The notes under the pieces were generated by a model. It was not told where the DNA came from and ran no database searches. It worked only from the letters and a program-made list of their open reading frames with translations. Below are positions 5,068 through 31,221 of a stretch of 32,000 nt of DNA, one piece after another; positions within the stretch are counted from its first letter, which is position 1, and the number at the start of each line of letters is the position of its first letter. A program made the position numbers and the translations under genes. Origin of the DNA: Trichodesmium erythraeum IMS101 (lineage in GTDB: Bacteria > Cyanobacteriota > Cyanobacteriia > Cyanobacteriales > Microcoleaceae); NCBI RefSeq assembly GCF_000014265.1, contig NC_008312.1:2610001-2642000 (forward strand), read 5' to 3'.

Positions 5068-6500
5068 AATGCTACCCAAACTTATATGACACCTTGACAC
5101 CACAAACTATATTTGAGCCGATAAATTTTCATTCTATGGAGCTCCAAAAAAATTAGGGAATCTTGGGAAGAAAATTGCTGAATTTTATGATATGATTCAA
5201 ATAGTGGGGTAAACATGCCTATATGCATGACTTTTTATTCAACACAATAAACTCTATCCTACTATTGCCAATATTTTCACAACTAGAAAAATGAAAAGGA
5301 GTAAAAAGGTTTTCCGGGAAAATGCTACCCAAACTTATATGACACCTTGACACCACAAACTATATTTGAGCCGATAAATTTTCATTCTATGGAGCTCCGA
5401 AAAAAATAGGGAATCTTGGGAAGAAAATTGCTGAATTTTATGATATGATTTAAATAGTGGGTGAAACATGGCTATATGCATGACTTTTTATTCAACACAA
5501 TAAACTCTATCCTACTATTACCAATATTTTCGCAACTAGAAAAATGAAAAGGAGTAAAAAGGTTTTCCGGGAAAATGCTACCCAAACTTATATGACACCT
5601 TGACACTACAAACTATATTTGAGCCGATAAATTTTCATTCTCTGGAGCTCCAAAAAGATTAGGGAATCTTGGGAAGAAAATTGCTGAATTTTATGATATG
5701 ATTCAAATAGTGGGGGAAACATGCCTATATACATGACTCTTTATTCAACACAATAAACTCTATCCTACTATTACCAATATTTTCGCAACTAGAAAAATGA
5801 AAAGGAGTAAAAAGTTTTTCCGGGAAAATGCTACCCAAACTTATATGGTACCTTGACACCACAAACTATATTTGAGCCGATAAATTTTCATTCTCTGGAG
5901 CTCCAAAAAAATTAGGGAATCTTGGGAAGAAAATTGCTGAATTTTATGATATGATTCAAATAGTGGGGGAAACATGCCTATATACATGACTCTTTATTCA
6001 ACACAATAAACTCTATCCTACTATTACCAATATTTTCGCAACTAGAAAAATGAAAAGGAGTAAAAAGGTTTTCCGGGAAAATGCTACCCAAACTTATATG
6101 GTACTTTGACACCACAAACTATATTTGAGCCGATAAATTTTCATTCTCTGGAGCTCCAAAAAAAATTAGGGAATCTTGGGAAGAAAATTGCTGAATTTTA
6201 TGATATGATTCAAATAGTGGGGGAAACATGCCTATATACATGACTCTTTATTCAACACAATAAACTCTATCCTACTATTACCAATATTTTCGCAACTAGA
6301 AAAATGAAAAGGAGTAAAAAGTTTTTCCGGGAAAATGCTACCCAAACTTATATGGTACTTTGACACCACAAACTATATTTGAGCCGATAAATTTTCATTC
6401 TCTGGAGCTCCAAAAAAATTAGGGAATCTTGGGAAGAAAATTGCTGAATTTTATGATATGATTCAAATAGTGGGGGAAACATGGCTATATGCATGACTTT
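5068..6500. repeat. Non-coding tandem array, 253-bp period, about 5.7 copies
   Basis: The motif AATGCTACCC recurs at 5068, 5321, 5574, 5827, 6080 and 6334. Copies are more than 90 percent identical by eye. No ORF of 60 aa or more occurs in any frame. Confidence 0.95.
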
Positions 6501-6547
6501 TTATTCAACAAAACAAAAAAACGAGTATAATAAATACAAAAATAAAA

Positions 6548-7043: not shown

Positions 7044-8561
7044 CTACAAATCTTTGCGTGACAGAAGAGATACAGCCCAACTCACTAAACTCAATAAACT
7101 CCCCACCGCCATCTCCGGCCAACTCGAACATGATGGGATATGCCCCTTATAATGCGTATTAATTGAAAAATCCAGATCAGAATACCACAACCATTTTCCT
7201 TCTTGACGCCATCCAACTTGATCACTAAAAGCTTCCCATATTTTTCGGTCATACTGCCTAGTACCACCCAAGCTCTGATAAATTTGCTTCTGCACAGAAA
7301 AACCAAACTTACCATTACTGTATTTTACCCAAAGTTTGTCAATAGTGCCCAAGTCCTCAGAAGGAAAATTATCTATATCTTCAACTCTCAACCAACCCTC
7401 CTCTTCTCGCTGTGCCACTGTCAACATACAATTAGTAGTTTCGAGATCTGCCTCTTTCCACTGTTGTGTAGCCAATAAATAACGCAACTTTTGATATTTT
7501 ATCTCTCTGACTGAAACTAGAGGTACATCAGTAGAAGCAGAATATTGTGGAAGTTGTTGATTTTTTTTATTATGAGAAGAAGACATTTGAGACTGAGGAA
7601 AAAACGGAGAAACATAAGAACTATTAACATTAATAGAAACAGATTGTTTTGTAAGTAATAGATTTTGTTGAGAAGGAGAAAAAATTGGTTTTAAATCATC
7701 TAAAACAGACTGAACATTCTGATAACGTTTCCTAAGTTTTAGCTCCACCAAACCATCTAAAACTTTCCCCAAATTATCACTAATAAAAGTTTTATTTAAA
7801 AAATCTCGCCATACCCATTCCATTTCTATTACATCATATATATCAAAGGGAGTCATCTGAGTCAATAAATATAAACAAACTAGCCCCAAACTATATAAGT
7901 CACTAGCTAATTTTAGTTTTCCTACCGACTGTTCTGGAGGGGAATATTCTGCCGAATTAAGAACCGTTCCTGTCACATTAAAACGCTGAAATTTTGGTAT
8001 TATTTTAGATATTCTAAAGTCAACCAAGACTAACTTTTTATCAGTCTCTCTCCTAATAATATTCTCTGGTTTAATATCCTGATGAATCACATCATAACTG
8101 TGCACAAACTCCAAAAGAGATAATAAGTCTATTAAAAATTCTCGAATCTGAGACTCATTAAAAACACCATAATTATCTAACTCTTGTTCCAGGGTTTTTC
8201 CTTGAATAAATTCTTGTACTAAATATTGACGACTATCCACAGTAAAATAAGTATAAAGCTCAGGAATTTGTGGATGCTTTCCTAACAACTTCAACTTTTC
8301 CCCTTCCTCTGCAAATAACTCAGCAGCTTTTTCCACATTTTCACTTCCCTGAGCTTGAGATAGAAACTGTTTGATCACACAAAAGGGTTTAGAAGGTTTA
8401 AGTTCATCAACTGCTAAAAAAGTTCTGCAAAAATTACCTTCTCCGATAATACTTTTGATCCAATAACGTTCTACAAGAAATAATTTATTTCCACATTTCT
8501 GAAAAAACTCAGAATTATCGGAATTAGGACTAGGACATTCAGGGTTAAGACATTGAGACAT
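7044..8561 (-). CDS. Ser/Thr protein kinase with a degenerate N-terminal zinc ribbon and a C-terminal GUN4 domain; the catalytic motifs are degenerate
   Basis: Kinase motifs are VIKQF, HQDIKPENI, DFRISK (in place of DFG) and YSPPEQ. The GUN4-like C-terminus reads WKEADLETT...FPSEDLGTIDKLWVKYSNGKFGFSVQKQIYQSLGG...VGWR. Confidence 0.85.
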   Translation of the reverse strand: MSQCLNPECPSPNSDNSEFFQKCGNKLFLVERYWIKSIIGEGNFCRTFLAVDELKPSKPFCVIKQFLSQAQGSENVEKAAELFAEEGEKLKLLGKHPQIPELYTYFTVDSRQYLVQEFIQGKTLEQELDNYGVFNESQIREFLIDLLSLLEFVHSYDVIHQDIKPENIIRRETDKKLVLVDFRISKIIPKFQRFNVTGTVLNSAEYSPPEQSVGKLKLASDLYSLGLVCLYLLTQMTPFDIYDVIEMEWVWRDFLNKTFISDNLGKVLDGLVELKLRKRYQNVQSVLDDLKPIFSPSQQNLLLTKQSVSINVNSSYVSPFFPQSQMSSSHNKKNQQLPQYSASTDVPLVSVREIKYQKLRYLLATQQWKEADLETTNCMLTVAQREEEGWLRVEDIDNFPSEDLGTIDKLWVKYSNGKFGFSVQKQIYQSLGGTRQYDRKIWEAFSDQVGWRQEGKWLWYSDLDFSINTHYKGHIPSCSSWPEMAVGSLLSLVSWAVSLLSRKDL

Positions 8562-8664: not shown

Positions 8665-10149
8665 TTAAAGTCTACAAATATTTGTGTGATAAAAGAGATA
8701 TCCTATCCCAAAACGACTCCACTTATTTAATGCCACAGCTGCCGGGAGGTGCCCAATATATCCACATATTTTGAGATTAAAACTTAGCTGAGAGTATCCC
8801 AACCACCTTCCCTTTCTACGCCATCCAACTTGATCAGCAAAAGCTTCCCATATTTTACTATCGTACTTCCTTGTACCCCCCAAACTCTGATAAATTTGCG
8901 TCTGTACAGAAAAACCAAACTGACCATCACTGTATTTTAGCCAAAGTTTATCAATACTGAGCAAGTCTTCACAAGGAAAATTATTTATATCTTTCACTCT
9001 CAACCAAAGTTCCTTTTCTCGCTTTGTAACCTTCAACATACACTTAATAGTTTCCTCATCTGCTTCTTTCCATTTTCCTGTAGCTAATAACTCACGCAAA
9101 TTTTCATAGTTTATTTCTCTAGCTGACACCAGAGGTACATCATTAGAAGCAGAATATTGTGGAAGTCGTTGATTTTTTTTAGTATGAGAAAAAGACGTTT
9201 GAGACTGAGGAGGAAACGTATAAATATGAGAACTATTGACATTAGTAGAAACAGATTTTTTTGTAAGCAATGATTTTTTTTGCACAGTAGAAATATCTGG
9301 TTGTAAATCATCGAAAACAGACTGAACATTCTGATAACGTTTCCTCAGTTTTGGCTCCACCAAACCATCTAAAACTTTTCCCAATTTATCACTAACAAAA
9401 TTTCCATTTAAAGAATCTCGCCATACCCATTCCATTTCCATTACATCATACAAATTCAAGGGACGAATATTAGTTAATAAATGCAAACAAACTACCCCCA
9501 AACTATACAAGTCACTAGCTAAATGTGATTTACCTATAGACTTTTCTGAAGCGGAATATTCTGCCGAACCAGTAATTGTTAACGTCACAGTATTACGTTG
9601 AACTTTTGGTATAATATTAGATACTCCAAAGTCAACCAAGACTAACTTTTTATCAGTTTCTCTCCTAATAATATTCTCTGGTTTAATATCCTGATGAATC
9701 ACATCATAACTGTGCACAAACTGTAATAGAGATAATAAGTCTATTAATAATTCTCGAATCTGAGCTTCATTAAAAACCCCATAATTATTTAACTCTTGTT
9801 TCAGGGTTTTTCCTTGAATAAATTCTTGTACTAAATATTGACGACTATCCACAGTAAAATAAGTATAAGTTTTAGGAATTTGTGGATGCCTTCCTAACAA
9901 TTTTAACTTTTCCGCTTCCTGTGCAAATTCATTCTTTTGGTAGGGAAGAATAAATTGTTTAATGACACAAAGAGGTTGAGATTTTTGAAATTCATCTACT
10001 GCTAAAAAAGTTCTGCAAAAATTACCTTCTCTGATCAGACTTTTTATCCAATAACGTTCTACAAGAAATAATTTATTTCCCCAATTATAACAAAACTCAG
10101 AATGATTGGGGTTAGGACTTAGGCACTTAGAGTTAAAAAAATTAGACAT
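8665..10149 (-). CDS. Ser/Thr protein kinase with a C-terminal GUN4 domain; tandem paralogue of 7044..8561
   Basis: Motifs are VIKQF, HQDIKPENI, DFGVSN and the GUN4 signature WKEADEETI...FPCEDLLSIDKLWLKYSDGQFGFSVQTQIYQSLGG...VGWR. By eye it is roughly three-quarters identical to its neighbour. Confidence 0.85.
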   Translation of the reverse strand: MSNFFNSKCLSPNPNHSEFCYNWGNKLFLVERYWIKSLIREGNFCRTFLAVDEFQKSQPLCVIKQFILPYQKNEFAQEAEKLKLLGRHPQIPKTYTYFTVDSRQYLVQEFIQGKTLKQELNNYGVFNEAQIRELLIDLLSLLQFVHSYDVIHQDIKPENIIRRETDKKLVLVDFGVSNIIPKVQRNTVTLTITGSAEYSASEKSIGKSHLASDLYSLGVVCLHLLTNIRPLNLYDVMEMEWVWRDSLNGNFVSDKLGKVLDGLVEPKLRKRYQNVQSVFDDLQPDISTVQKKSLLTKKSVSTNVNSSHIYTFPPQSQTSFSHTKKNQRLPQYSASNDVPLVSAREINYENLRELLATGKWKEADEETIKCMLKVTKREKELWLRVKDINNFPCEDLLSIDKLWLKYSDGQFGFSVQTQIYQSLGGTRKYDSKIWEAFADQVGWRRKGRWLGYSQLSFNLKICGYIGHLPAAVALNKWSRFGIGYLFYHTNICRL

Positions 10150-16978: not shown

Positions 16979-17117
16979 TTTCAGATCATCTACTTGGGAA
17001 ATATCAGATAATAGCCCGACATATTCATCACCACACTAGAATTTCAATCCCATTTCAACTACTAACAATAATGCCTGTTTAATTTGAGTTTCTTTTTGGG
17101 ATATCTCCAGATTTTTT
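16979..17117 (+). repeat. Right copy of the dispersed repeat; it runs directly into the heptamer array
   Basis: TTCAGATCATCTACTTGGGAAATATCAGATAATAGCCCGACATATT...GGGATATCTCCAGATTTTTTGAGG. Its 3' end resembles the array punctuation ATTTTTTGAGG. Confidence 0.7.
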
Positions 17118-20100
17118 GAGGTTTTAGGTTTGAAGTTTTAAGTCTCAATTTTTTGAGGTTTTAGGTTTGAAGTTTGAAGTTTGAGGTCTCAATTTTTTTA
17201 GGTTTGAAGTTTGAGGTCTCAATTTTTTGAGGTTTGAGGTTTTAGGTTTTAGGTTTGAAGTTTGAGGTCTCATTTTTTTGAGGTTTTAGTTTTAGGTTTG
17301 AAGTTTTACGTCTCAATTTTTTGAGGTGTTAGGTGTTAGGTGTTAGGTTTTAGGTTTTAGGTTTGAAGTTTTAAGTCTCAATTTTTTGAGGTTTTAGGTT
17401 TTAGGCGTTAGGCGTTAGTTTTTAAGTTTGAGGTCTCAATTTTTTGAGGTTTTAGGTTTTAGGTGTTAGTTTTAGGTTTGAAGTTTTACGTCTCAATTTT
17501 TTGAGGTGTTAGTTTTAGGTTTGAAGTTTTAAGTCTCATTTTTTTGAGGTTTTAGGTGTTAGGTGTTAGGTGTTAGGTTTGAAGTTTGAGGTCTCAATTT
17601 TTTGAGGTGTTAGGTTTTAAGTTTTAAGTTTGAGGTCTCAATTTTTTGAGGTTTTAAGTTTTAAGTTTGAGGTCTCAATTTTTTAAGGTTTTACGTTTTA
17701 AGCTTGAGGTCTCAAGGTTTGAGGTTTTAAGTTTTAAGTCTCATTTTTTTGAGGTTTTAGGTTTGAAGTTTGAAGTTTGAGGTCTCATTTTTTTGAGGTT
17801 TTAGGTTTTAGGTTTGAGGTTTGAGGTTTGAAGTTTGAGGTCTCATTTTTTTGAGGTTTTAGTTTTAGGTTTTAAGTTTTACATCTAAATTTTTTGAGGT
17901 TTTAGTTTTAGGTTTGAAGTTTGAGGTCTCAATTTTTTGAGGTTTGAGGTTTGAGGTTTGAGGTTTTAGGTTTGAAGTTTTAAGTCTCAATTTTTTGAGG
18001 TTTGAGGTTTGAAGTTTGAAGTTTTAAGTCTCAATTTTTTGAGGTGTTAGGTTTTAAGTTTGAGGTTTGAGGTCTCAATTTTTTGAGGCTTTAGGTTTGA
18101 AGTTTTAAGTCTCAATTTTTTGAGGTTTTAGTTTTAGGTTTGAAGTTTTAGGTTTGAAGTTTGAGGTCTCATTTTTTTGAGGTGTTAGGTTTTAAGTTTG
18201 AAGTTTGAGGTCTCAATTTTTTGAGGTTTTAGGTTTGAAGTTTGAGGTCTCATTTTTTTGAGGTGTTAGGTTTTAATTTTGAAGTTTTAAGTCTCAATTT
18301 TTTGAGGCTTTAGGTTTGAAGTTTTAAGTCTCAATTTTTTGAGGTTTTAGGTGTTAGGTTTGAGGTTTGAGGTTTGAAGTTTGAGGTCTCATTTTTTTGA
18401 GGTTTTAGTTTTAGGTTTGAAGTTTGAGGTCTCAATTTTTTGAGGTTTTAGTTTTAGGTTTGAAGTTTTAAGTCTCAATTTTTTGAGGTTTTAGGTTTGA
18501 AGTTTGAGGTCTCAATTTTTTGAGGTTTGAGGTTTGAAGTTTGAGGTCTCATTTTTTTGAGGTTTTAGTTTTAGGTTTGAAGTTTTAAGTCTCAATTTTT
18601 TGAGGTTTGAGGTTTGAAGTTTGAAGTTTGAGGTCTCATTTTTTTGAGGTTTGAAGTTTGAAGTTTTAAGTCTCAATTTTTTGAGGCTTTAGGTTTGAAG
18701 TTTTAAGTCTCAATTTTTTGAGGTTTTAGGTGTTAGGTTTGAGGTTTGAGGTTTGAAGTTTGAGGTCTCATTTTTTTGAGGTTTTAGTTTTAGGTTTTAA
18801 GTTTTACATCTCAATTTTTTGAGGTTTTAGTTTTAGGTTTGAAGTTTGAGGTCTCATTTTTTTGAGGTTTGAGGTTTGAGGTTTGAGGTTTTAGGTTTGA
18901 AGTTTTAAGTCTCAATTTTTTGAGGTTTTAGGTTTGAAGTTTGAAGTTTTAAGTCTCAATTTTTTGAGGTGTTAGGTTTGAAGTTTGAGGTTTGAGGTCT
19001 CAATTTTTTGAGGCTTTAGGTTTGAAGTTTTAAGTCTCAATTTTTTCAGGTTTTAGGTGTTAGGTTTGAGGTTTTAGGTTTGAAGTTTGAGGTCTCATTT
19101 TTTTGAGGTTTTAGTTTTAGGTTTGAAGTTTTAAGTCTCAATTTTTTGAGGTGTTAGGTTTGAAGTTTGAGGTTTGAGGTCTCAATTTTTTGAGGTTTTA
19201 GGTTTGAAGTTTTAAGTCTCAATTTTTTCAGGTTTTAGGTGTTAGGTTTGAGGTTTGAGGTTTGAAGTTTGAGGTCTCATTTTTTTGAGGTTTTAGTTTT
19301 AGGTTTGAAGTTTTAAGTCTCAATTTTTTGAGGTTTTAGTTTTAGGTTTGAAGTTTTAAGTCTCAATTTTTTGAGGTTTTAGGTTTGAAGTTTGAGGTCT
19401 CAATTTTTTGAGGTTTTAGTTTTAGGTTTGAAGTTTTAGGTTTGAAGTTTTAAGTCTCAATTTTTTGAGGTCTCATTTTTTTGAGGTTTTAGGTTTGAAG
19501 TTTGAGGTCTCAATTTTTTGAGGTTTTAGTTTTAGGTTTTAAGTTTTACATCTCAATTTTTTGAGGTTTTAGTTTTAGGTTTCAAGTTTGAGGTCTCAAT
19601 TTTTTGAGGTTTTAAGTTTTAAGTTTGAGGTCTCAATTTTTTGAGGTTTTAGGTTTTAAGTTTGAGGTCTCAATTTTTTGATGTTTGAGTTTTAGGTTTG
19701 AAGTTTTAAGTCTCAATTTTTTGAGGTTTTAGGTGTTAGGTTTTAGGTTTTAGGTTTTAAGTTTGAGGTCTCATTTTTTTGAGGTTTTACGTTTTAAGCT
19801 TGAGGTTTTAGGTTTGAAGTTTGAGGTCTCATTTTTTTGAGGTTTTACGTTTTAAGCTTGAGGTCTCAAGGTTTGAGGTTTTAAGTTTTAAGTCTCATTT
19901 TTTTGAGGTTTTAGGTTTGAAGTTTGAAGTTTGAGGTCTCATTTTTTTGAGGTTTGAAGTTTGAAGTTTGAGGTCTCATTTTTTTGAGGTTTTAGTTTTA
20001 GGTTTTAAGTTTTACATCTCAATTTTTTGAGGTTTTAGTTTTAGGTTTGAAGTTTGAGGTCTCAATTTTTTGAGGTTTGAGGTTTGAGGTTTGAGGTTTT

Positions 20101-21480
20101 AGGTTTTAGGTTTGAAGTTTTAAGTCTCAATTTTTTGAGGTTTTAGGTTTGAAGTTTGAAGTTTGAGGTCTCAATTTTTTGAGGCTTTAGGTTTGAAGTT
20201 TTAAGTCTCATTTTTTTGAGGTTTTAGTTTGAGGTTTGAGGTTTTAGGTTTGAAGTTTGAGGTCTCATTTTTTTGAGGTTTTAGTTTGAGGTTTGAAGTT
20301 TGAGGTCTCATTTTTTTGAGGTTTTAGTTTGAGGTTTGAAGTTTGAGGTCTCATTTTTTTGAGGTTTGAGGTTTGAAGTTTGAAGTTTTAAGTCTCAATT
20401 TTTTGAGGTTTGAAGTTTGAAGTTTGAGGTCTCATTTTTTTGAGGTTTTAGTTTGAGGTTTGAGGTTTTAGGTTTGAAGTTTGAGGTCTCATTTTTTTGA
20501 GGTTTTAGGTTTTAGGTGTTAGTTTTAGGTTTGAAGTTTGAGGTCTCATTTTTTTGAGGTTTTAGGTTTGAAGTTTGAAGTTTGAGGTCTCATTTTTTTG
20601 AGGTTTGAAGTTTGAAGTTTGAGGTTTTAGGTTTGAAGTTTGAGGTCTCATTTTTTTGAGGTTTTAGGTTTGAGGTTTGAAGTTTTAAGTCTCATTTTTT
20701 TGAGGTTTTAGGTTTGAAGTTTGAAGTTTGAGGTCTCATTTTTTTGAGGTTTTAGGTTTGAAGTTTGAGGTCTCATTTTTTTGAGGTTTTAGTTTTAGGT
20801 TTGAGGTTTTAGGTTTGAAGTTTGAGGTCTCATTTTTTTGAGGTGTTAGTTTTAGGTGTTAGGTTTTAGGTTTGAAGTTTGAGGTCTCATTTTTTTGAGG
20901 TTTTAGGTTTTAGGTTTTAAGTTTTAAGTCTCATTTTTTTGAGGTTTTAGGTTTGAAGTTTGAAGTTTGAGGTCTCATTTTTTTGAGGTTTGAAGTTTGA
21001 AGTTTGAGGTCTCATTTTTTTGAGGTTTTAGTTTTAGGTTTTAAGTTTGAGGTATCAATTTTTTGAGGTTTTAGTTTTAGGTTTGAAGTTTGAGGTCTCA
21101 ATTTTTTGAGGTTTGAAGTTTGAAGTTTTAAGTCTCAATTTTTTGAGGTTTTACGTTTGAAGTTTGAAGTTTTAAGTCTCAATTTTTTGAGGTTTTACGT
21201 TTTAAGCTTTAAGTTTGAGGTCTCATTTTTTTGAGGTGTTAGTTTTAGGTGTTAGGTTTGAGGTTTTAAGTTTGAGGTCTCAATTTTTTGAGGTTTTAAG
21301 TTTTAAGTTTGAGGTCTCAATTTTTTGAGGTTTTAGGTTTGAAGTTTTAGGTGTTAGTTTTGAAGTTTGAGGTCTCAATTTTTTGAGGTTTTAGGTGTTA
21401 GGTTTTAGGTGTTAGTTTTGAAGTTTGAGGTATCAATTTTTTGAGGTTTTAGGTGTTAGGTTTGAAGTTTGAGGTCTCAG
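17110..21480 (+). repeat. Hierarchical tandem array of 4.37 kb. Runs of 7-nt units (TTTTAGG, TTTGAAG, TTTGAGG, TGTTAGG, TTTTAAG) are punctuated by a conserved element TCTCA(A/T)TTTTTTGAGG
   Basis: My hand count finds about 97 punctuation elements, an average module of about 45 bp with usually 3-7 heptamers. The plus strand is almost C-free outside TCTCA. The supplied track shows no ORF of 60 aa or more in any frame between 17083 and 21487. Confidence 0.97.
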
Positions 21481-21553: not shown

Positions 21554-21572
21554 GACTCGCCAAAGGCGAGAC
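21554..21572 (-). promoter_or_regulatory. GC-rich hairpin followed by a T-run downstream of VR2; either a DGR target-site hairpin/cruciform or an intrinsic terminator
   Basis: The sense strand reads GTCTCGCC-TTT-GGCGAGTC then GAAATTTTTTGGG. The stem is 6 bp perfect, or 8 bp with one mismatch. The copy at 24356-24374 is nearly identical, differing only in the loop. Confidence 0.6.
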
Positions 21573-21604: not shown

Positions 21605-22522
21605 CTATTCAGGAGTCCTGGGGGGGAAACTCACAAGACGAAAACCAACAAAGTCGTTGACCGCCTCGACCGAGAAATAGTAGCCGCGGAACGCAGAGCG
21701 ACACCACCAAGGAAAGTCGTACCAGGAGCCGCCCCGTAATCTTTTTGTAGTATATTTTGTAGTATTTTGATTACTTGATACCCATGGACTACCATCATTA
21801 GGTGCGCCCTCGTAATTATCATGCGAGTCATCTTCGCACCATTCCCAGACATTCCCGTGCATATCATATAATCCAAAAAGATTAGCAACTTTGAAGTAAC
21901 CAACTGGAGTGGTTTGTTCTCTATATTCTCCTTTTGGGCCTCTGCCGTAAGAGCCAGACGATTTTTTTTCCCCATCATCCTTTCCACGATAGTTAGCGAG
22001 GTCTGTGGTAATAGTTTCCCCAAAATGAAAAGGCGTAGTTGTTCCTGCACGACAAGCATATTCCCATTGTGCTTCACTGGGTAGCTGATAGTTTCTTTCT
22101 GTCTTCTGACTTAACCGGGCACAAAACTCTTGAGCATCTAGCCAAGAAACTTTCTCAACTGGGCGAGTCCAACGATTATATTTTTCATAGTCATCTTTAA
22201 AATATGAAGGGTCAGGCTTAAGGTCACGTTCAATTTTTTCTGTAGTTTCAACAACAGCTTTCCACTGGCCTTGAGTAATGGGATAACGCCCCATAAAAAA
22301 TTCTGGTACTGTAACTTCATGTTGTGGGCGTTCAGAATGAGTCGAATCTAGCTCATTTTCTGGAGCACCCATAATAAACTTGCCTGCTGGTATCTTAACC
22401 ATAGCCAGTTCAACATTATTGCCCAGGTCTTCGGTATAGTATTCAGCTTGTTCTTTTTTCTTACGAATAGTAATTCTTACCATGGATCTATATATATATG
22501 AAGTCGGGCAACAGTTCAGCAT
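21605..22522 (-). CDS. Stand-alone FGE-sulfatase (SUMF1 / C-type-lectin-fold) domain protein; DGR target 2
   Basis: The sequence reads MVKIPAGKFIMGAPENE...RPQHEVTVPEFFMGRYPITQGQW...VSWLDAQEFCARLS...LPSEAQWEYACRAGTTTPF...GLYDMHGNVWEWCED...LRGGSW...CRSAFR...GFRLV. The likely start is the ATG at 22483 (MVRITIRKKK). The C-terminal 38 aa are encoded by VR2. Confidence 0.88.
   Translation of the reverse strand: MLNCCPTSYIYRSMVRITIRKKKEQAEYYTEDLGNNVELAMVKIPAGKFIMGAPENELDSTHSERPQHEVTVPEFFMGRYPITQGQWKAVVETTEKIERDLKPDPSYFKDDYEKYNRWTRPVEKVSWLDAQEFCARLSQKTERNYQLPSEAQWEYACRAGTTTPFHFGETITTDLANYRGKDDGEKKSSGSYGRGPKGEYREQTTPVGYFKVANLFGLYDMHGNVWEWCEDDSHDNYEGAPNDGSPWVSSNQNTTKYTTKRLRGGSWYDFPWWCRSAFRGYYFSVEAVNDFVGFRLVSFPPRTPE
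21611..21732 (-). other. DGR variable repeat 2 (VR2), including the IMH at its 3' end
   Basis: Hand alignment to TR 22642-22763 finds 18 mismatches within 22651-22763, and all are at TR adenines (T on the plus strand). Confidence 0.9.
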
Positions 22523-22641
22523 TGCTTACTGGGCCGCCCAACTCAATTTGATTTTCGGATGCCGTTACCAACATCGCCGGAACAGGTCTGGACTCTTCTT
22601 TGGCACGCCCGACATATTCCCATATGCCAGTTCTGGCACAG

Positions 22642-22763
22642 AAGAGTGCTGGGGGGGAAACTCACAAGACGAAAACCAATATTGTTGTTGTCCGCCTCGT
22701 CCGAGTTATAGTTGTTGCGGTTCGCAGAGCGACACCTCCTAGGATAGTTGTTCCAGGAGCCGC
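22642..22763 (-). other. DGR template repeat (TR), non-coding and transcribed as the RT template
   Basis: It is homologous to both VRs. Conceptual translation is Asn-rich (NSGSWNNYPRRCRSANRNNYNSDEADNNNIGFRLVSFPP), with AAY codons wherever the VRs vary. It is not preceded by the rest of an FGE domain. Confidence 0.9.
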
Positions 22764-22879
22764 TGTTTGCCTGCCCCACATTTAGTATAGTTCAAATTGA
22801 TCAAATTTAACGATTAAATGTTCCCTGTCCGGAGGTCTTGCCGGAAATAGATTTACTTTTACCTTGGTGAATTTCTCAT

Positions 22880-23944
22880 TTAACCCTGGGAACGGGAAAA
22901 GCCATAGGATGCAAAAATAGATTGGCGTAATTTATAGGTATCTCCGTGGGACAAGTGGGCTTCCCAACTTTGCATTCGTTCTTTCAATTTTTCTAAGGAC
23001 AGAGTACCGTTTTGATAATCTTTCTGCATTTGCTTTAGTCGCTTTCGCCCTCGCCTGAGGTTGTCATTGCGGACTCGAATTCTCTCTGGAAATACTCGAA
23101 AACCTACAAAGTTTGCTCCGTGGCGGGTTTCAAATATTTGAGTTTTAATGGGATGAATTTTTAAACGTAGAGCAGTAAGGTTTTGTTCTATTTTTTGTCT
23201 AGCTTGAGTTAAAGTTTCTCGGTGGTCGCTAAAAAGTGCAAAGTCATCAACGTATCGTAAGTATTTTTTGATTTGCAATTTCTCTTTGACAAAATGATCG
23301 AGGCTATCCAAGAAAAAGTTAGCTAAAAATTGACTGGTTAGGTTGCCTATGGGTAGACCTTTTCGCCGGAGTACGGGAGTGGTCGGGTTATCTCCTGGAA
23401 AATATTCTAGCACAGGTTCTTGAGGGTTACTACCATCAATAATTGTATCGATTAACCATAATGTGTTTTGGTATTTAGTTTTCGGGCGGTTCTTGGTTTT
23501 GAGAATTTCTAGGTCAATACTGGGAAAATATTTCTGAATGTCGCATTGCAGAATATATTTGCTGGAACGAGAAAAGTTGATAAAACGTTGCAGGGCTCGG
23601 TGAGAACTGTAGTCTATACGGTTAGCATAGGTATGGTGGATAAAATAATGTTCTACTAGGGGGACAATGATGTTACATAGAGGGTGGTGAACGACGCGAT
23701 CGCGATAAGGTGCGGCAGAAATTAACGGGGGCTTGGGGTCATATATTCTAAAAGTTTTGTAAGCTCCGGGAGAATAGGTTTTATCTCGCAGTTGGGCTGG
23801 TAGTTTGAATATGTTTGTTTCTAAGTTTTAGTTAAATTCTGGGATGTTGTCTCGAAGTCGCTTGCCTTTTTGAGCGTAACGAGCGGCTAAAAACAAGTTT
23901 TTCCAGGCTACAATTTGGGGCCAAAGGTTTCCATGACGTTTCAT
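22880..23944 (-). pseudogene. DGR-type reverse transcriptase; 354 codons are open apart from one in-frame TAA at codon 39
   Basis: Hand translation from the ATG at 23944 gives [45 protein letters not shown]...[13 protein letters not shown]...[11 protein letters not shown]...LPIGNLTSQ...YVDDFALF. The TAA is at 23830..23828. The (I/L)GxxxSQ motif is DGR-specific rather than group II-like. Confidence 0.85.
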
Positions 23945-23968
23945 TGGATTTTGTTTTAAGTTTGATTA

Positions 23969-24310
23969 TTAGGGTTCAGATAAGTTTTTAGTCCAACTAC
24001 CTAAGTCAGATCCTATTCCATTGATCTGTATATTTATATATTTGTAGCGATCGCTGGAAATTAATTCAAAATCTGAGAGTAGGCGAGTTTGGTGCCGAAT
24101 AACATCAAGTTTAATGTTCAGGTTTTGCAAAATCTCTAATTTTTCACTGGTGCTAAAACGGGCACGAATCAGATTTTCCAGCAAATCATAAAGATGATTA
24201 ATTATCCGCGTTCCTAAACCAAGACGATAATTCCTTGGCAAACGATTTAATACTGGGACATACCATTTAATAAAATCATAGGTCTTTTGAATAATTGGTA
24301 ATTCATTCAT
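23969..24310 (-). CDS. avd: Avd-type accessory variability determinant (four-helix-bundle, 23S rRNA IVS protein family)
   Basis: The sequence reads MNELPIIQKTYDFIKWYVPVLNRLPRNYRLGLGTRIINHLYDLLENLIRARF... (113 aa). It sits between the target and the RT. The longer ORF reaching 24394 would run through the conserved VR 3' flank, so I place the start at 24310. Confidence 0.8.
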   Translation of the reverse strand: MNELPIIQKTYDFIKWYVPVLNRLPRNYRLGLGTRIINHLYDLLENLIRARFSTSEKLEILQNLNIKLDVIRHQTRLLSDFELISSDRYKYINIQINGIGSDLGSWTKNLSEP

Positions 24311-24355
24311 ATTTTTATATTTGGGCCATATTTTCTCAATTTCAAAAAAAATTTC

Positions 24356-24374
24356 GACTCGCCAGAGGCGAGAC
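24356..24374 (-). promoter_or_regulatory. GC-rich hairpin followed by a T-run downstream of VR1; either a DGR target-site hairpin/cruciform or an intrinsic terminator
   Basis: The sense strand reads GTCTCGCC-TCT-GGCGAGTC then GAAATTTTTTTT. It lies about 40 nt 3' of the IMH, in the 96-nt gap between the target stop (24407) and the avd start (24310). Confidence 0.6.
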
Positions 24375-24406
24375 TGAAAAGGGCAAAAGGGCAAAAGAGC
24401 AAAGGG

Positions 24407-27040
24407 CTATTCAAGAGTCCTGGGGGGGAAACTCACAAGACGAAAACCAAAATTGATGATGACCGCCCCGTCCGAGCTAAAGTCGTAGCGGTACGCAGAG
24501 CGACACCACCAAGGATAGTTGAGCCAGGAGCCGCCCCGTAATACTTTTGTAGAATATTTTGTAGTATTTTGATTACCTGATAGCCATGGACTACCATCAT
24601 TGGGTGCACCCTCATAATTATCATGCATATCATCTTCGCACCATTCGTAAACATTCCCGTGCATATCGTATAAGCCAAAAGGATTGGCCACTTCAAAACT
24701 ACCAACAGGAGTTGTTTCTTCTCTATACTTGCCTTTTGTCCCTTGGCCATAAGTATAATTGCCATCATAATTGGCCAGGTCTGTAGTAATAGTTTCCCCA
24801 AAATGAAAGGGTGTAGTTGTTCCTGCACGACAAGCATATTCCCATTGAGCTTCACTGGGAAGCCCATAGTTTCTGCCTGTATATTTGGATAGTCTGGCAC
24901 AAAACTCTACTGCATCATACCAAGACACTCTTTCTACAGGTCGATCATTTCCTTTAAAATATGAAGGGTTAGACTTAAGGTCACGTTCAATTTTTGGCAC
25001 ATTATCAACAATGGCTTTCCACTGACCTTGAGTAACAGGGTAGCGACCCATGAGAAAAGCTGAAATATTCACCTGATGTTGAGGACCTTCACGACTTTCT
25101 CGTTCCAATTCATCTTCTGGGGAGCCCATAAGAAACTTTCCTGGGGGAATTTCCACCATTTCAAGTTTAATTCCATTCCCCAAGTCTTCCACAATACCTG
25201 TAACTTGTCGGCGTTGTTTTTTGATAGCCCATCGATATCCAAATAATCTCAATAATTCTGAACGTCTTTTTTCCAACCTTGCTAGATCAAACTCAAAGGT
25301 TACAGTTTCCTGCACTTCAATGAAAGCAACGTCAAAAGTATCAGTTTGAATTTGAGGTTCTGATCTGACTTCTGACTCGGGAGTTTCAAAAATGGGAGGA
25401 ACAGAAACAGGTCGAATTTTCTGGGCAACCTTCTCAGCAAACTCAGCATATTCTCCACCTAAATTTTCCAATACATCAACAGCAACTTGAGCAAAAGGTA
25501 AGACTTGCTCCCGGTCTTCCTCCTCATATTGAGGCAATAAGGTCAACAAAGCTCGAAAACTACGAATAGGTCGGTCAATTTTTTCAGCGATGTAACGAGA
25601 AACAGCATCCAGAACAGCCGTAGTTTCGTTGCGCCCCATTGCCTGGTTCAACTCTTTTCGGACACCAGGAAGAAATTCATAAGTTGGTTGATCATCCTTA
25701 GAGTCAGTTGGAGCAAGCAAACCTCCCATATAAACTTCCGCCACATGAACGGTGGTAGCTTCCTTTAAGAGAGTTTTGCGAATTAAGTTAACCACAGACA
25801 AATTCACCGGAGCCGCCGCCATCATCCCTGCGAGTCGTTGAGCAGTAATAGAAGTTGTTGCCAGAAATTTTCTCACCCTAGTTGTAGGTGAAATTTCTTT
25901 TTTAGGGGTGGGTAGCTCTGGTGGAGAGTCTTCTTGTTTTTGGCAAAATTGCTTTTCAACAAAAGATAAATCAAATAAAAATATAGGTACTCGTGAGTTA
26001 CTAGCTCCGGACACTATCCGACACCAACTTTTCAAAAGTTCAGGTTCAGGCAGAATGACAGGTAAAACCAAAGCATTCTTCCAGTTTATAGGTATCCAGG
26101 GAGGTAAATTTTCCAAAACCAACCGGGGGTTAGGAACTCCTGGTGCAACAGCAGTACCAAAAAATTTACTTCCCACTCCCAGTTGAGTGCTATCCCAAAG
26201 ATATTCAGGGAATAACTGTAATATTGTTGTGGGGTTTTTTTCTGACCAAACTTTTAACCAGTGGTGAACAGTACCATTTTGCCAAATTTTAGAAGTACAG
26301 TCACTGACAAAAATAACTACTCCCCGCTGGTTAGAATGAATTAATTCTCGATGACTATGTTGACGTTGCTTTGGTTTACCGCTGTTATGTCGCCGGACTA
26401 ATTTTAATTTTTTAGTATTTGAACTGAGCAAACTCCAGACTCGGACATTTTTAAATGCTCCCTGAGTTTCCAAGACTTCTTGCATTTCATTCACCGTCTC
26501 TCTCCAAATAAAAGCGGAACTCGACTCTTCTACCACCAGTTCTAAGTCAAGCCAGCGTTCGGGTTCTGGTTTAGTAACGGGCAACCAGATATCCTGCTCG
26601 GCAATAACATTAACAGTTTCTTCTTCGTCTAGTGTTTTTCTGGAGAGAGAGGGAACTTTCCGCATCAGAGGACGCAAAGCACGACCTAACTCCAGTACAT
26701 TCTGGAGAGCTGGAGCCGCGGGTGTTTGGAATGGCAAACCTTTAACTGGAGGTTTTTCGGGGGTTTGGTCTATTGATTCCTCCGTGATCACTGATACTTG
26801 AGGTTCTCTCTCGGTAACAGGTTGAGGATCACTGTCTTCAAAAATTATCGGCAGTTGTTCCGGTTGCTGTTCATATTTTGGCTTCGGCTTTTGTGGAGTC
26901 TTCACCGTACCCATTTGTAAAGCCAACCAAATACTATCAGCAATATTTTCATCGCTGAGTTCCAGACCTTCTAAAATTCCGGTTCGAGCGAGTCGGTCTA
27001 TCAAAAGTTTAATGGTGTGCTCAAAACTGGAACTACTCAT
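24407..27040 (-). CDS. Multidomain sensor protein and DGR target 1. Order: N-terminal helical domain, Pro/Glu-rich linker, vWA-like domain, middle region, C-terminal FGE-sulfatase (C-type-lectin-fold) domain
   Basis: The vWA-like part reads LELVVEESSSAF (an ExSxS MIDAS-like motif) ... GVVIFVSDCTSKIWQNGTVHHWLKVWSEKNPTTILQLFPEYLW. The FGE part reads MVEIPPGKFLMGSPEDE...GPQHQVNISAFLMGRYPVTQGQW...SWYDAVEFCARLS...LPSEAQWEYACRAGTTTPF...GLYDMHGNVYEWCED...LRGGSW...CRSAYR...GFRLV. Its start lies 4 nt after the stop of the upstream gene. Confidence 0.88.
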   Translation of the reverse strand: MSSSSFEHTIKLLIDRLARTGILEGLELSDENIADSIWLALQMGTVKTPQKPKPKYEQQPEQLPIIFEDSDPQPVTEREPQVSVITEESIDQTPEKPPVKGLPFQTPAAPALQNVLELGRALRPLMRKVPSLSRKTLDEEETVNVIAEQDIWLPVTKPEPERWLDLELVVEESSSAFIWRETVNEMQEVLETQGAFKNVRVWSLLSSNTKKLKLVRRHNSGKPKQRQHSHRELIHSNQRGVVIFVSDCTSKIWQNGTVHHWLKVWSEKNPTTILQLFPEYLWDSTQLGVGSKFFGTAVAPGVPNPRLVLENLPPWIPINWKNALVLPVILPEPELLKSWCRIVSGASNSRVPIFLFDLSFVEKQFCQKQEDSPPELPTPKKEISPTTRVRKFLATTSITAQRLAGMMAAAPVNLSVVNLIRKTLLKEATTVHVAEVYMGGLLAPTDSKDDQPTYEFLPGVRKELNQAMGRNETTAVLDAVSRYIAEKIDRPIRSFRALLTLLPQYEEEDREQVLPFAQVAVDVLENLGGEYAEFAEKVAQKIRPVSVPPIFETPESEVRSEPQIQTDTFDVAFIEVQETVTFEFDLARLEKRRSELLRLFGYRWAIKKQRRQVTGIVEDLGNGIKLEMVEIPPGKFLMGSPEDELERESREGPQHQVNISAFLMGRYPVTQGQWKAIVDNVPKIERDLKSNPSYFKGNDRPVERVSWYDAVEFCARLSKYTGRNYGLPSEAQWEYACRAGTTTPFHFGETITTDLANYDGNYTYGQGTKGKYREETTPVGSFEVANPFGLYDMHGNVYEWCEDDMHDNYEGAPNDGSPWLSGNQNTTKYSTKVLRGGSWLNYPWWCRSAYRYDFSSDGAVIINFGFRLVSFPPRTLE
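24413..24534 (-). other. DGR variable repeat 1 (VR1), including the IMH at its 3' end
   Basis: Hand alignment to TR finds 14 mismatches within the segment matching TR 22651-22763, and all are at TR adenines. Confidence 0.9.
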
Positions 27041-27043
27041 ATT

Positions 27044-28096
27044 TTAATCTTCAGCCTCAGCTCTTCCTAAGTCTTGTAAAAGTTGTTGTACTAATTCGTC
27101 GTCAAAAAAACTTTTACCTTCGGTAGCAGGGATACGACCCTTTGTCACCATAAAAATTGCATTCAATAACTGGTCAGTTGCCAGAGTTTTCTCATCCTGG
27201 AGGTCAATAAAATTTTTAATTAGTGTTTGAATTTTTTCTTGTTCAGCAGTATTTTGATTAAAATGAGCAATAACTATTTTGGTCAATTCTTCTTGAGTTG
27301 GAGATTTCATCCTTAAAGGCAAACACCGCCGTAAAAAAGGTGCCGGAAAATCTCTTTCTCCGTTACTAGTCATCACCACCAGAGGAAAAGCGGTGCAAGT
27401 TATCCGCCCATTCTCAATTTCCGCCTCCATCTGAGAACCTGTCTCGGCTTCAGTTTCATCACTGTAAGCAGTACGAACCGTTACCTTGTTTACCTCTTTT
27501 TTTATTCTGACCAACTCTGGAATTTCAAACAACCCCTCTTCGAGAATAGCCAGAAGGTTATTAGGTAAGTCAATATCGCTTTTATCAATTTCATCTATCA
27601 GAAGAACCCGGGGATATTTTGAAGGCAACAAAGCAGTTCCCAAAGGACCGAGAGTTATGTATTTTTCAATTTGTTGTATCTGTTCTCGATATTGTTCTGA
27701 GGAAAAAGTCTGATTATTTAGTCTTTCCTGTTGTTTAACCTCCTGCAACCGACCAATAGCATCATAACTATATAGTCCCTCTTTCAAAATAGTGCGGGTA
27801 GTAACTGGCCAGTAAAGCACTTCTCCCAGTTTTAGTTGTCTAGCCACAGCATAAGCGAGGGAAGACTTACCCGTTCCTGGTTTACCAGTGACAAGTAGAG
27901 GTCGCCTCAAATATAATGCAGCGTTAACCATTTTGACTTCATCAGAACGTGCCTGAAAAGTTTCACCACGTCGCTTCAAGCGACTTTCCCCAGGTCTGTT
28001 TTCTTGACCAAAAGGTCGCCAACTAGGAGGAGGTGGCAAATTTTGAATACCATCATGAGGTTCTGTGTTTTCCTTAAAAATTTCCCAGTTATTCAT
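27044..28096 (-). CDS. MoxR-like AAA+ ATPase
   Basis: Walker A is LLVTGKPGTGKSSLAYAVA and Walker B is RVLLIDEIDKSD, followed by LPNNLLAILEEG. The start overlaps the upstream stop (ATGA at 28093-28096). Confidence 0.88.
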   Translation of the reverse strand: MNNWEIFKENTEPHDGIQNLPPPPSWRPFGQENRPGESRLKRRGETFQARSDEVKMVNAALYLRRPLLVTGKPGTGKSSLAYAVARQLKLGEVLYWPVTTRTILKEGLYSYDAIGRLQEVKQQERLNNQTFSSEQYREQIQQIEKYITLGPLGTALLPSKYPRVLLIDEIDKSDIDLPNNLLAILEEGLFEIPELVRIKKEVNKVTVRTAYSDETEAETGSQMEAEIENGRITCTAFPLVVMTSNGERDFPAPFLRRCLPLRMKSPTQEELTKIVIAHFNQNTAEQEKIQTLIKNFIDLQDEKTLATDQLLNAIFMVTKGRIPATEGKSFFDDELVQQLLQDLGRAEAED

Positions 28097-30086: not shown

Positions 30087-30437
30087 CTAACCCTCCGTCT
30101 TATTCCATTTCAGAGTAATTTCATAGTTAACCTCCGCGCTACCTGATGCAATAACAGCTCCCAGTTCACCACTCATTTTTATCCCAAACTTCACCTCTAC
30201 AGCATCAGCCGGTTGATTTAAGTCCTGAACCTTTTTGATAATTGCGTTGGCCACCGGCTTAATACTAGAAAGTGCCTTTCCCAGTGTTTGTTTAGCCTGT
30301 TGAGCGACCTCATCCCCAATGCCAATTAACTCCTCATCTTCATCTTCATTGCTACTGACTGGTAGCTTTTCATCCACTTCCACATAGACAAAAGACTCAT
30401 CATCATCATCTAACTGAAACTTAACTAATTTTGTCAC
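30087..30437 (-). CDS. Small Trypco2-like (trypsin co-occurring) protein
   Basis: The sequence reads VTKLVKFQLDDDDESFVYVEVDE...AVEVKFGIKMSGELGAVIASGSAEVNYEITLKW, which fits the family pattern. A GTG at 30437 is preceded by GGAGG (30444-30448) with a 6-nt spacer, so I prefer it over the ATG at 30503 in the ORF track. Confidence 0.7.
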   Translation of the reverse strand: MTKLVKFQLDDDDESFVYVEVDEKLPVSSNEDEDEELIGIGDEVAQQAKQTLGKALSSIKPVANAIIKKVQDLNQPADAVEVKFGIKMSGELGAVIASGSAEVNYEITLKWNKTEG

Positions 30438-30796
30438 TTGTATCCTCCCGTCAGTCAATTTTTTTATATTTCCATATATTCTATAACAACTCGGCAGCCA
30501 CATTGAGATGTCATTTCATTTATTCTTATGTTGGTGTTAAAACTGCCCGTAAAGATAAGAGTAAAAACTAAAAAATATCCTGCCATCCCATTCAAAACAA
30601 ATGGAAAAATTACTGCTATATTCGTAGCTTAATTAACTAGGATATTATAAATATTATCAACCATCAACTAGAAAGAAAAATTAGCCTCAACTGTTTACCC
30701 CTCCCCCATTCCTCCATTCCCCTACTTCCCATCCTGAGAGAGACTAGGGGAACAGAACCTAATCAAAGTGCCAAATTGAAAATTTTTCGAGCTAAA

Positions 30797-30877
30797 TAGT
30801 ATACATCCTTAATATATTAGGGATAGTATACATCCTTAATATATTAGCGATAGTATACATCCTTAATATATTAGCGA
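30797..30877. repeat. 27-bp direct repeat in 3 copies
   Basis: TAGTATACATCCTTAATATATTAG(G/C)GA starts at 30797, 30824 and 30851. The last copy overlaps the stop of ORF 30871..31221. Confidence 0.9.
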
Positions 30878-31221
30878 TCGCATATCATCAAAATTCCAGC
30901 CTCAGAACCTTGAGGAGAAATGAACCTATTACCTTCTAACGTTGTTTCAGCAATAATCTCACCAAGACCAGTTTGTCTTCTAATTAATTGAGAAGCAAAC
31001 CTGCCAATATTACAATCAATTTCCACCACCATATAGACCTGTTTCATTCCATCATCTGCCTCCTGATCGTATTGCTTTAATACTTCTGCCCTCCACAAAT
31101 TGTTGCCCAGGCCTTCAATAGTGTTCATATTTATTAACGTTGTTGCCTTAGTATTATAACCTACAGGCTCCCAATCTAAAATCCCTTGTGTAATAATAAC
31201 ACTAGCCAAAAATTCAAACAT
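30871..31221 (-). CDS. Hypothetical protein (116 aa)
   Basis: This is an uninterrupted ORF with no family motif that I recognise. Confidence 0.45.
   Translation of the reverse strand: MFEFLASVIITQGILDWEPVGYNTKATTLINMNTIEGLGNNLWRAEVLKQYDQEADDGMKQVYMVVEIDCNIGRFASQLIRRQTGLGEIIAETTLEGNRFISPQGSEAGILMICDR

Follow-up and report, generated by a model that had tools for sequence, protein, structure and literature searches.

We examined a stretch of 32,000 nt from the genome of Trichodesmium erythraeum IMS101 (NC_008312.1, positions 2,610,001 to 2,642,000; hereafter the window), in which a complete diversity-generating retroelement (DGR) had been predicted from the sequence. We are highly confident that the locus is the known DGR of this strain ("DGR2", Tery_1727 to Tery_1731), that the element is non-autonomous, and that its two variable repeats (VR1 and VR2) are records of past homing from its template repeat (TR). 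The original prediction thus stands as an assignment to the DGRs, given the adenine specificity of the repeats, the reverse transcriptase (RT), Avd and the targets, but not in its claim of completeness, because the RT is a pseudogene. The DGR, its TR RNA and the RT pseudogene have all been published (Doulatov 2004; Pfreundt 2014, PMC4143802; Paul 2022; Doré 2024), and because papers of 2004 and 2014 already describe this very element, the finding as such is already known. Pfreundt 2014 (PMC4143802) described the same locus with a stop at RT position 39 and a 265-nt TR RNA together with its start site, reported that this RNA is very abundant in IMS101, and observed no VR change when the culture was resequenced. 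Paul 2022 described a second IMS101 DGR RT, Tery_1035, as well as VR hypervariability in Tara metagenomes. Only the following goes beyond these accounts: a null RT allele with further nonsense mutations on other haplotypes, one of them from the ocean, Arg-to-Pro changes in the "intact" alleles, and a coordinate-level model of the TR RNA.

Exact alignment confirmed that TR matches VR1 and VR2 without gaps on the minus strand (Table 1) and that 14 mismatches in VR1 and 18 in VR2 fall at TR adenines, as had been claimed; the protein strings quoted for TR, VR1 and VR2 were also correct. In total, VR1 differs from TR at 15 positions (14 A-site, 1 non-A) and VR2 at 20 (18 A-site, 2 non-A), so that tabulation by TR base places 32 of the 35 mismatches at TR adenines (Fisher test of adenine vs. 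non-adenine mismatches, p = 1.2e-9 for VR1 and 3.6e-12 for VR2). Within the first 115 nt of TR, the 89 non-adenine positions carry zero mismatches. The adenine substitutions in the two VRs together comprise 23 A>T, 8 A>G and 1 A>C. Every one of the 29 TR adenines occupies codon position 1 or 2; nine codons are of the form AAY, and no A-to-N change can create a stop codon. We found no further TR or VR copy (conserved 29-mer) in the 32,000-nt window.

The prediction had also held that the G, C and T positions of TR are invariant, which proved wrong in three places towards the 3' end. Both VR1 (24419) and VR2 (21617) have G where TR has C at position 116 (window 22648), and VR2 (21612) has C in place of the T at TR position 121 (22643). 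The last variable TR adenine is position 84, and all three non-adenine mismatches lie 3' of it in an invariant block where adenines 102, 114 and 117 never vary. TR C116 and VR G116 are fixed in all TRs and VRs of 10 related contigs, and the three differences behave like the fixed difference between the initiation of mutagenic homing sequence and its TR-side counterpart (IMH/IMH*). Homology between TR and the VRs begins at 22763/22764 on the TR side and stops two codons short of the target stop codon, where TR reads CTGTGCC and the VRs read GAATAG. Each target gene is followed by a short GC hairpin with a T-run, which may be a terminator, a DGR target-recognition hairpin, or both.

Avd and an RT with the IGNLTSQ and YVDDF signatures had been placed between the repeats. 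Both lie between VR1 and TR, although the in-frame stop codon in the RT had been overlooked. Avd, whose start codon we took from independent gene calls on identical DNA, matched the NF033474 equivalog model at 1.5e-35 (121.6 bits; cut-off 80) and PF22296 (bAvd) at 1.5e-18; a search of its sequence against the PDB gave no match. The RT matched RVT_1 at 1.5e-19 and contains the motifs IGNLTSQ and YVDD; an RT fragment 100% identical to it is annotated in T. erythraeum. A group II intron or retron identity, which had been named as the assignment that would speak against a DGR, was not borne out. The closest solved relative of the RT is the Bordetella phage bRT (PDB 8ub7, E = 1e-44, residues 2-349), and the best group II RT among solved structures reached 1.5e-13. 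Scores for the group II RT/maturase model TIGR04416 (113.8 bits, cut-off 300) and the retron RT model NF038233 (55.8 bits, cut-off 235) were far below the cut-offs, and an Rfam scan of the window at gathering thresholds gave zero matches, be it to group II intron or retron RNA or to a curated family for the TR RNA. PADLOC returned generic RT and UG-class matches only for the RT, and no match for Avd or the targets.

The RT reading frame runs ...IPEFN*NLETN..., with homologs reading EFNYNLE across the codon-39 stop. This stop is TAA followed by A, and no ATG, GTG or TTG occurs downstream of it before codon 178. In an alignment of the window RT with 117 homologs, the RT deviates at 9 of the 145 columns that are at least 95% conserved (V34I, L35P, R73P, A88P, G111D, G113S, C158Y, L188T and L270I), the highest number for any of the 118 sequences (median, 1). 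The codon-39 TAA and the substitutions at conserved sites together indicate that the element is not autonomous in IMS101, and it is this RT lesion that makes the IMS101 VR1 and VR2 records of past homing. Between the stop codon of the RT and the promoter of the TR RNA, T. erythraeum has a 35-bp stretch (22826-22860) that the sister-clade contigs L149 and L150 lack.

TR itself is embedded in a longer RNA for which comparative analysis supports a defined fold. An nhmmer search with 22790..22505 (minus strand) recovered the whole ~275-nt unit beside the RT in more than 100 related loci (E = 1e-20 to 1e-42) from cyanobacteria and large sulfur bacteria. RNAalifold applied to 87 non-redundant sequences gave 39 pairs, 34 of them with compensatory changes. 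Across 38 pairs in five helices, 95.0% of cells were paired, compared to 30-45% when the partners were slid, and 552 cells carried double changes, compared to 78-128 in the slid controls; none of 500 shuffles reached the observed pairing values. The P1 helix, whose TR strand begins directly after the C/G position 116, had compensatory changes in 4 of its 7 pairs and 96.7% of cells paired, and in the GNRA-capped hairpin P2 these values were 9 of 9 and 97.4%. The long-range duplex was paired in 95.5% of cells, compared to 35-64% in shifted controls, with GC-to-AU covariation among the 87 sequences. Its 5' strand starts ~7 nt after the hexamer TATACT, in agreement with the published start site and a transcript of ~278 nt. 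Neither this promoter nor the hairpins downstream of the VRs were called in strict scans for sigma-70 promoters and terminators. The helices correspond to three features of the BPP-1 ribonucleoprotein, namely the TR:Sp duplex used in priming, the stem-loop bound by Avd and the "cPRT Stop" duplex, and by analogy they may have equivalent binding and priming roles. Handa et al. found these three RNA features conserved in 207 DGRs, including those of Cyanobacteriota, in which GNRA loops are common; the elements of the TR RNA are therefore known in kind.

We then compared the locus among T. erythraeum haplotypes. Genome and metagenome contig scans with the RT returned only relatives of at most 66% identity, and the T. 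erythraeum haplotypes were reached by exact-protein look-ups. The retrieved T. erythraeum contigs are 96-99% identical to the window, with flanks that are only 0.2-0.8% divergent; L151 (99.99%) and L153 (100%) are IMS101 itself. Sample provenance was taken from record names, with PRJEB4352 or TARA labels on L156, L159 and L164. Only contigs whose DNA was read were counted, and L157 has an N-gap over RT codons 1-50. Gene calls of 177 aa for the RT were rejected as proof of disruption on short contigs, since a caller that avoids edge partials would give the same result. At DGR loci with many VR paralogs, short-read assembly can produce chimeras. Two segments are probably of this kind and were excluded from inference: the 3' terminal part of L152 (1767-1868), where TR switches to VR-like sequence, and a flank of L158 (7110-7464), which departs from all others inside the post-VR2 hairpin.

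The codon-39 stop (Y39*, TAC>TAA) is present on five contigs other than IMS101 (L152, L154, L155, L163 and L164), which are 1.5-4% divergent from IMS101 locally. The record name of L164 is ERR1726697, PRJEB4352 marine metagenome, PRJEB4352 being a Tara Oceans project. All five contigs also carry RT W8* (TGG>TAG, 23922) and Avd W106* (TGG>TAG, 23994), and IMS101 has neither. When RT substitutions were polarised with the sister-clade allele L149, the 19 derived in IMS101 all fell within 23845..23426 and none within 23425..22880, and 17 of the 19 are common to other stop-bearing contigs. The sequence flanking 23845..23426 in IMS101 is identical to the intact alleles, and in 24040..23861 IMS101 is identical to the intact-ORF (open reading frame) alleles, with L152, L154 and L155 representing a different haplotype. 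The simplest reading of these sequences is that Y39* is not a culture artefact and that null RT alleles circulate in a recombining population, IMS101 having probably lost RT function by importing a ~0.4-kb tract from a decayed allele. The intact-ORF alleles are themselves altered: they carry R283P, R300P and R302P (CGA>CCA; 23097, 23046 and 23040) at sites that are Arg in 116 of 116 homologs, and among 11 distinct 177-aa C-terminal RT fragments in the protein collection all R/P combinations occur at the three Arg sites. Judged by sequence, every T. erythraeum RT allele in the sample has changes at conserved positions, and the sister-clade allele, which comes from the Trichodesmium metagenome-assembled genomes (MAGs) St17_bin3 and St5_bin2, is clean. 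As a separate observation, 9 of the 23 RT differences among haplotypes (22880-23944 compared to L155/L156) are C/G transversions, all of them in NCG/NCC context and most of them giving rise to Pro codons; in the rest of the 10-kb alignment C/G transversions make up 16 of 91 differences, making the RT spectrum unusual.

The repeats vary among haplotypes as well. TR is identical across the T. erythraeum contigs except at position 69 (window 22695), which is G in IMS101 and strain 21-75 and G in 4 of 4 of their VRs. The other TRs have A at this position, and A is kept in 8 of the 13 of their VRs that are readable there. At this non-adenine site, then, the VRs follow their own TR, a behaviour that TR-to-VR transfer would produce. 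The variable parts of the IMS101 VRs contain only adenine-site changes, which indicates that these VRs were written recently. The VRs of the contigs with all three nonsense mutations contain non-adenine changes, an indel and, in one codon that is TAT in every T. erythraeum TR, an older AAT state, which fits frozen alleles. VR1 is identical in the four intact-ORF contigs, which may not be independent samples. Among L156, L158 and L160, VR2 differs at A sites only, although the L158 flank looks chimeric. Putting the cassettes and repeats together, we lean towards the view that the natural T. erythraeum DGR is a polymorphic, recombining mix of null (Avd W106*, RT W8*, RT Y39*) and impaired (R283P, R300P, R302P) cassettes that was not broken in culture, and that the ~0.4-kb import into IMS101 came shortly after its VRs had been rewritten.

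This view departs from that of Pfreundt 2014 (PMC4143802), in which the RT was inactivated by a single point mutation in the IMS101 culture between 1993 and 2004 and the wild element is intact and active. The stop in the IMS101 genome, the unchanged VRs on resequencing, a wild Hawaiian scaffold with an intact RT at 94% nucleotide identity (Pfreundt 2014, PMC4143802) and the intact 354-aa ORFs on the T. erythraeum-type contigs L156, L158, L159, L160 and L161 are all compatible with inactivation in culture. We nevertheless consider it very unlikely, because the same TAC-to-TAA change sits on the five divergent contigs beside the W8* and W106* mutations that IMS101 lacks, and because the clustering of the 19 substitutions, 17 of them shared, resembles imported recombination tracts. 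The "wild" RT with 94% identity, moreover, matches the sister-clade allele L149/P0002 (93.5%) and not T. erythraeum proper. Contamination by IMS101 is a very unlikely source of the five Y39* contigs given their extra stops and 1.5-4% divergence.

That the element still functions in IMS101, by read-through of the TAA or through the RT and Avd of the Tery_1035 DGR acting in trans, seems to us very unlikely. It could draw on the high abundance of the TR RNA, on the presence of a second DGR RT in the genome, on the clean variable parts and the TR variant G69 in the IMS101 VRs, which point to recent rewriting, and on at least five different VR1 alleles among the stop-bearing haplotypes. The culture, however, showed no VR change, the TAA is followed by A with no start codon before codon 178, and the RT is altered at further conserved sites, including R73P in the fingertip loop, where the equivalent bRT R74 contacts the incoming nucleotide. 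The non-adenine decay and older TR state in the VRs of the triple-nonsense contigs fit frozen alleles shuffled by recombination, and DGR RT-Avd complexes make many specific contacts by which they recognise their cognate RNA. We give almost no credence to the further alternative that the repeats are ordinary paralogs, produced by duplication and gene conversion beside an unrelated group II intron or retron RT. A duplication did occur, as the ~80% identity between target 2 and part of target 1 shows, and the best-scoring NCBIfam model for the RT is that of a group II intron RT/maturase. Paralogy does not account for mismatches confined to TR adenines across the first 115 nt, nor for a TR that lies outside any target-family ORF and within a conserved structured RNA; the group II score is far under its cut-off, Rfam detected no intron or retron RNA, and among solved structures bRT comes out ahead by 30 orders of magnitude in E-value. 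We therefore return to a DGR that is broken in IMS101 and, in T. erythraeum as a whole, probably decayed allele by allele.

Table 1. Features of the DGR locus and its upstream operon (window positions; for RT alleles of other haplotypes, the contigs on which they occur).
Feature	Position	Strand	Remarks
TR	22642..22763	-	26 adenines in variable part; C at 22648 where the VRs have G
VR1	24413..24534	-	variable 24534..24451; invariant IMH-like 3' part 24450..24413
VR2	21611..21732	-	variable part 21732..21649
GC hairpin CTCGCC-TCT-GGCGAG + T-run	24358..24372	-	~40 nt past target 1 stop codon
GC hairpin CTCGCC-TTT-GGCGAG + T-run	21556..21570	-	~40 nt past target 2 stop codon
avd, 113 aa	23969..24310	-	NF033474 DivGenRetAVD, PF22296 bAvd
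DGR RT pseudogene (Tery_1728/1729), 354 codons	22880..23944	-	one in-frame stop
Premature TAA, RT codon 39	23828..23830	-	TAC (Tyr) in homologs and intact T. erythraeum alleles
-10-like hexamer TATACT	22784..22789	-	read directly from sequence, upstream of TR RNA 5' end
TR RNA (DGR RNA), ~278 nt	22500..22777	-	5' stop-duplex strand, TR, structured 3' domain
P1	22647..22641 with 22598..22592	-	TR 3' end ACUCUUC : GAAGAGU; encloses P2
P2	22630..22609	-	9-bp hairpin, GGGA (GNRA) tetraloop
P3 hairpin	22577..22557	-	7/8 pairs with compensatory changes
P4/P4a 3' hairpin	22544..22501	-	compensatory changes in P4 11/11, P4a 3/3 pairs
Long-range duplex	22777..22770 with 22586..22579	-	GGGGCAGG : CCUGUUCC
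Target gene 1 (Tery_1731, ABG50993.1), 877 aa	24407..27040	-	SAV_2336 N-terminal domain + FGE-sulfatase/C-type lectin (CLec) domain ending in VR1
Target gene 2 (Tery_1727, ABG50990.1)	21605..22483	-	FGE-sulfatase/CLec only; PF03781; ends in VR2
AAA+ ATPase (MoxR-like)	27044..28096	-	PF00004, PF07728; 4-nt overlap with VMAP gene stop
Trypsin-like peptidase + VMAP-M1 + VMAP-C, 643 aa	28093..30024	-	PF13365 3.9e-11; PF19963 2.8e-19; PF20028 7.9e-27
Trypco1 (trypsin-co-occurring domain 1) adaptor gene	30087..30503	-	PF19493 3.9e-25; NF041216 1.7e-23
Intact-ORF RT allele, 354 aa	L156, L158, L159, L160 and MAG ALOHA_ZT_67 (L162, 5' partial)		mutually identical
Strain 21-75 RT allele	L161		intact ORF, Arg 283/300/302 kept; A88P, S100Y, D104H, G111D, G113S
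Sister-clade RT allele	L149/P0002		deviates only at L188I, L270I

The FGE-sulfatase C-termini proposed for both targets were verified, with PF03781 matches that reach the C-termini. Target 1 matched NF041121 (SAV_2336_NTERM) at 6.5e-146 over residues 30-489 and PF03781 at 1e-54 over residues 627-869; target 2 matched PF03781 at 1e-52 to 1.1e-51, and its sequence matches include PvdO, FGE and the DGR target TvpA. The VR-bearing domains are accordingly assigned by sequence, with no ambiguity as to family, to the C-type-lectin/FGE-sulfatase fold. An older annotation of target 2 as 305 aa starts at 22522, inside the TR RNA, and gene calls on identical DNA and from a MAG give 292 aa. Because position 22522 falls within the P4 helix, the 292-aa form is favoured and is likely the true ORF. 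Target 2 shares ~80% identity with target 1 over the last ~800 nt of the latter, ~100 nt of downstream flank included, and we conclude that a duplication occurred. In strain 21-75 (L161 5221-7853), target 1 is annotated as two ORFs of 388 and 489 aa, so its sensor gene is disrupted while its RT ORF is intact.

VMAP denotes vWA-MoxR-associated protein. Upstream of the DGR, in an operon whose first gene is the Trypco1 adaptor gene, the VMAP-plus-effector feature of the vWA-MoxR-VMAP system is present in the form of the Trypsin_2, VMAP-M1 and VMAP-C domains and the upstream Trypco1. Target 1 lies in this operon and is predicted to be the sensor of the Trypco1/trypsin-VMAP/AAA-ATPase conflict system. 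The operon matches the architecture described by Doré 2024 for multicellular bacteria, in which DGR-diversified CLec sensors stand beside MoxR ATPases, Trypco adaptors and trypsin effectors. At the start of a 116-aa ORF (30871-31221), which has no family match and is conserved in all related contigs, and in the gap before Trypco1, a 27-bp unit is repeated 3.1 times with 98% identity (30796-30878).

If the element were intact, we would expect it to work as follows. A promoter of its own, located directly past the RT gene, would drive a ~270-nt non-coding RNA, and the flanks of this RNA would fold into the duplex between the TR 3' end and downstream sequence, the GNRA-capped hairpin and the long-range 5'/3' duplex. 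By analogy with BPP-1, the RT-Avd complex would dock on these helices, which would also set the site of cis-priming and bring cDNA synthesis to a halt. The RT would copy TR faithfully save at adenines, and the cDNA would replace the 3' 85-100 nt of the target genes, with the direction fixed by the G/C difference in the invariant 3' block. Up to 17 codons would thereby be randomised on the ligand-binding face of the FGE-sulfatase/C-type-lectin fold, in one target that may serve as the conflict-system sensor and in another that is a stand-alone copy of the same domain.

Several observations weigh against parts of this account. Present-day activity of the IMS101 copy is unlikely because its RT is broken, and the priming, cDNA and homing steps are carried over from BPP-1 by homology. 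The 6-bp GC hairpin following the VRs, when its DNA fold was compared to shuffles, gave z = -1.4, which is not significant alone. In the upstream operon, the ATPase scored 16.8 bits against PF20030 (bpMoxR), under the cut-off of 27, with only the generic AAA and AAA_5 models above their cut-offs, and Pfam detected no vWA domain on target 1, whose N-terminus is instead SAV_2336_NTERM. Membership in the "VMAP ternary system" is therefore incomplete.

The original prediction had also likened the locus to the BPP-1 paradigm (mtd / avd / TR / brt), a comparison that holds for the kind of element but not for gene order, which is avd-RT-TR here and avd-TR-RT there. Like BPP-1, the Trichodesmium element combines adenine-specific TR-to-VR differences with Avd, full-length RT homology including the motifs IGxxxSQ and YxDD, a C-type-lectin-fold target that carries the VR at its 3' end, an invariant 3' block in which TR and VRs differ in a manner like IMH vs. 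IMH*, and an RNA with a duplex between the TR 3' end and downstream sequence, a stem-loop just past TR and a 5'/3' "stop" duplex. Unlike BPP-1, it is chromosomal, has an RT pseudogene and serves two adjacent targets (~12 genome-wide according to the literature), which are of the FGE-sulfatase-type CLec class, one of them fused to a conflict-system sensor. Its RT relatives, 57-65% identical, are from cyanobacteria and large sulfur bacteria, as in the DGR clade of cyanobacteria and multicellular bacteria (Vallota-Eastman 2020; Doré 2024, RT clades 5A/5E; e.g., Thiohalocapsa PB-PSB1 DGR 8). It differs from that clade in that VMAP domains are recognisable on the Trichodesmium peptidase, the target N-terminus is SAV_2336_NTERM and not vWA, and the RT is inactivated. 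The VMAP and effector are shared with the vWA-MoxR-VMAP ternary conflict system of Kaur et al. 2020, but Pfam gave no vWA match on target 1. Target 2 also matches Treponema denticola TvpA (PDB 2Y3C; E = 4e-11), which has an FGE-sulfatase-type CLec fold with a C-terminal VR. Unlike TvpA, a surface lipoprotein, the Trichodesmium targets lack an evident signal peptide, and target 1 belongs to a system of NTPase and peptidase that is predicted to be cytoplasmic. Compared to the published T. erythraeum DGR (Doulatov 2004; Pfreundt 2014; Paul 2022), the locus, TR, two VR genes, codon-39 stop and TR RNA agree, and the accounts differ in that the stop was attributed there to culture and is found here on other haplotypes, one of them from a Tara Oceans metagenome, and in that the "intact" alleles have three Arg-to-Pro changes at invariant sites.

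Repeats also occur elsewhere in the window. Most of an ORF-poor gap of 5.7 kb is taken up by a 4.3-kb array of ~600 degenerate heptamers (17111-21475; TTTTAGG on the plus strand, CCTAAAA on the DGR-gene strand), which begins ~130 nt past the target 2 stop codon and shows higher-order periods of 37 and 44 bp. The array is not confined to IMS101, since the TARA-labelled contig L156 and L161 of strain 21-75 extend into its first 150-200 nt. A non-coding stretch at 5068-6517 holds 5.7 tandem copies of a 253-bp unit at 97% identity. A 799-aa TPR protein with 13 near-identical (94%) repeats of 126 bp (42 aa) is encoded at 1096-3492, adjoining an insertion sequence-type DDE transposase (293-1039) and a short AAA_16 fragment (3764-4414). 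Tandem paralogs at 7047-8561 and 8668-10149 encode Ser/Thr protein kinases with a C-terminal GUN4 domain.

The RNA model, supported by covariation, pins down to exact coordinates the elements for RT-Avd docking, for priming and for stopping in the DGR clade of cyanobacteria and sulfur bacteria, which should be useful for reconstitution experiments. The occurrence of the null allele on other haplotypes changes how VR hypervariability in T. erythraeum metagenomes may be read, since standing, recombining alleles have to be considered beside ongoing mutagenesis. Because the sister-clade allele is clean and the T. erythraeum alleles are changed, natural loss of the diversifier is directly testable. 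If our reading of the haplotypes is true, T. erythraeum would be a natural case of a hypermutation system that, in the wild, has been turned off and left frozen one allele after another.

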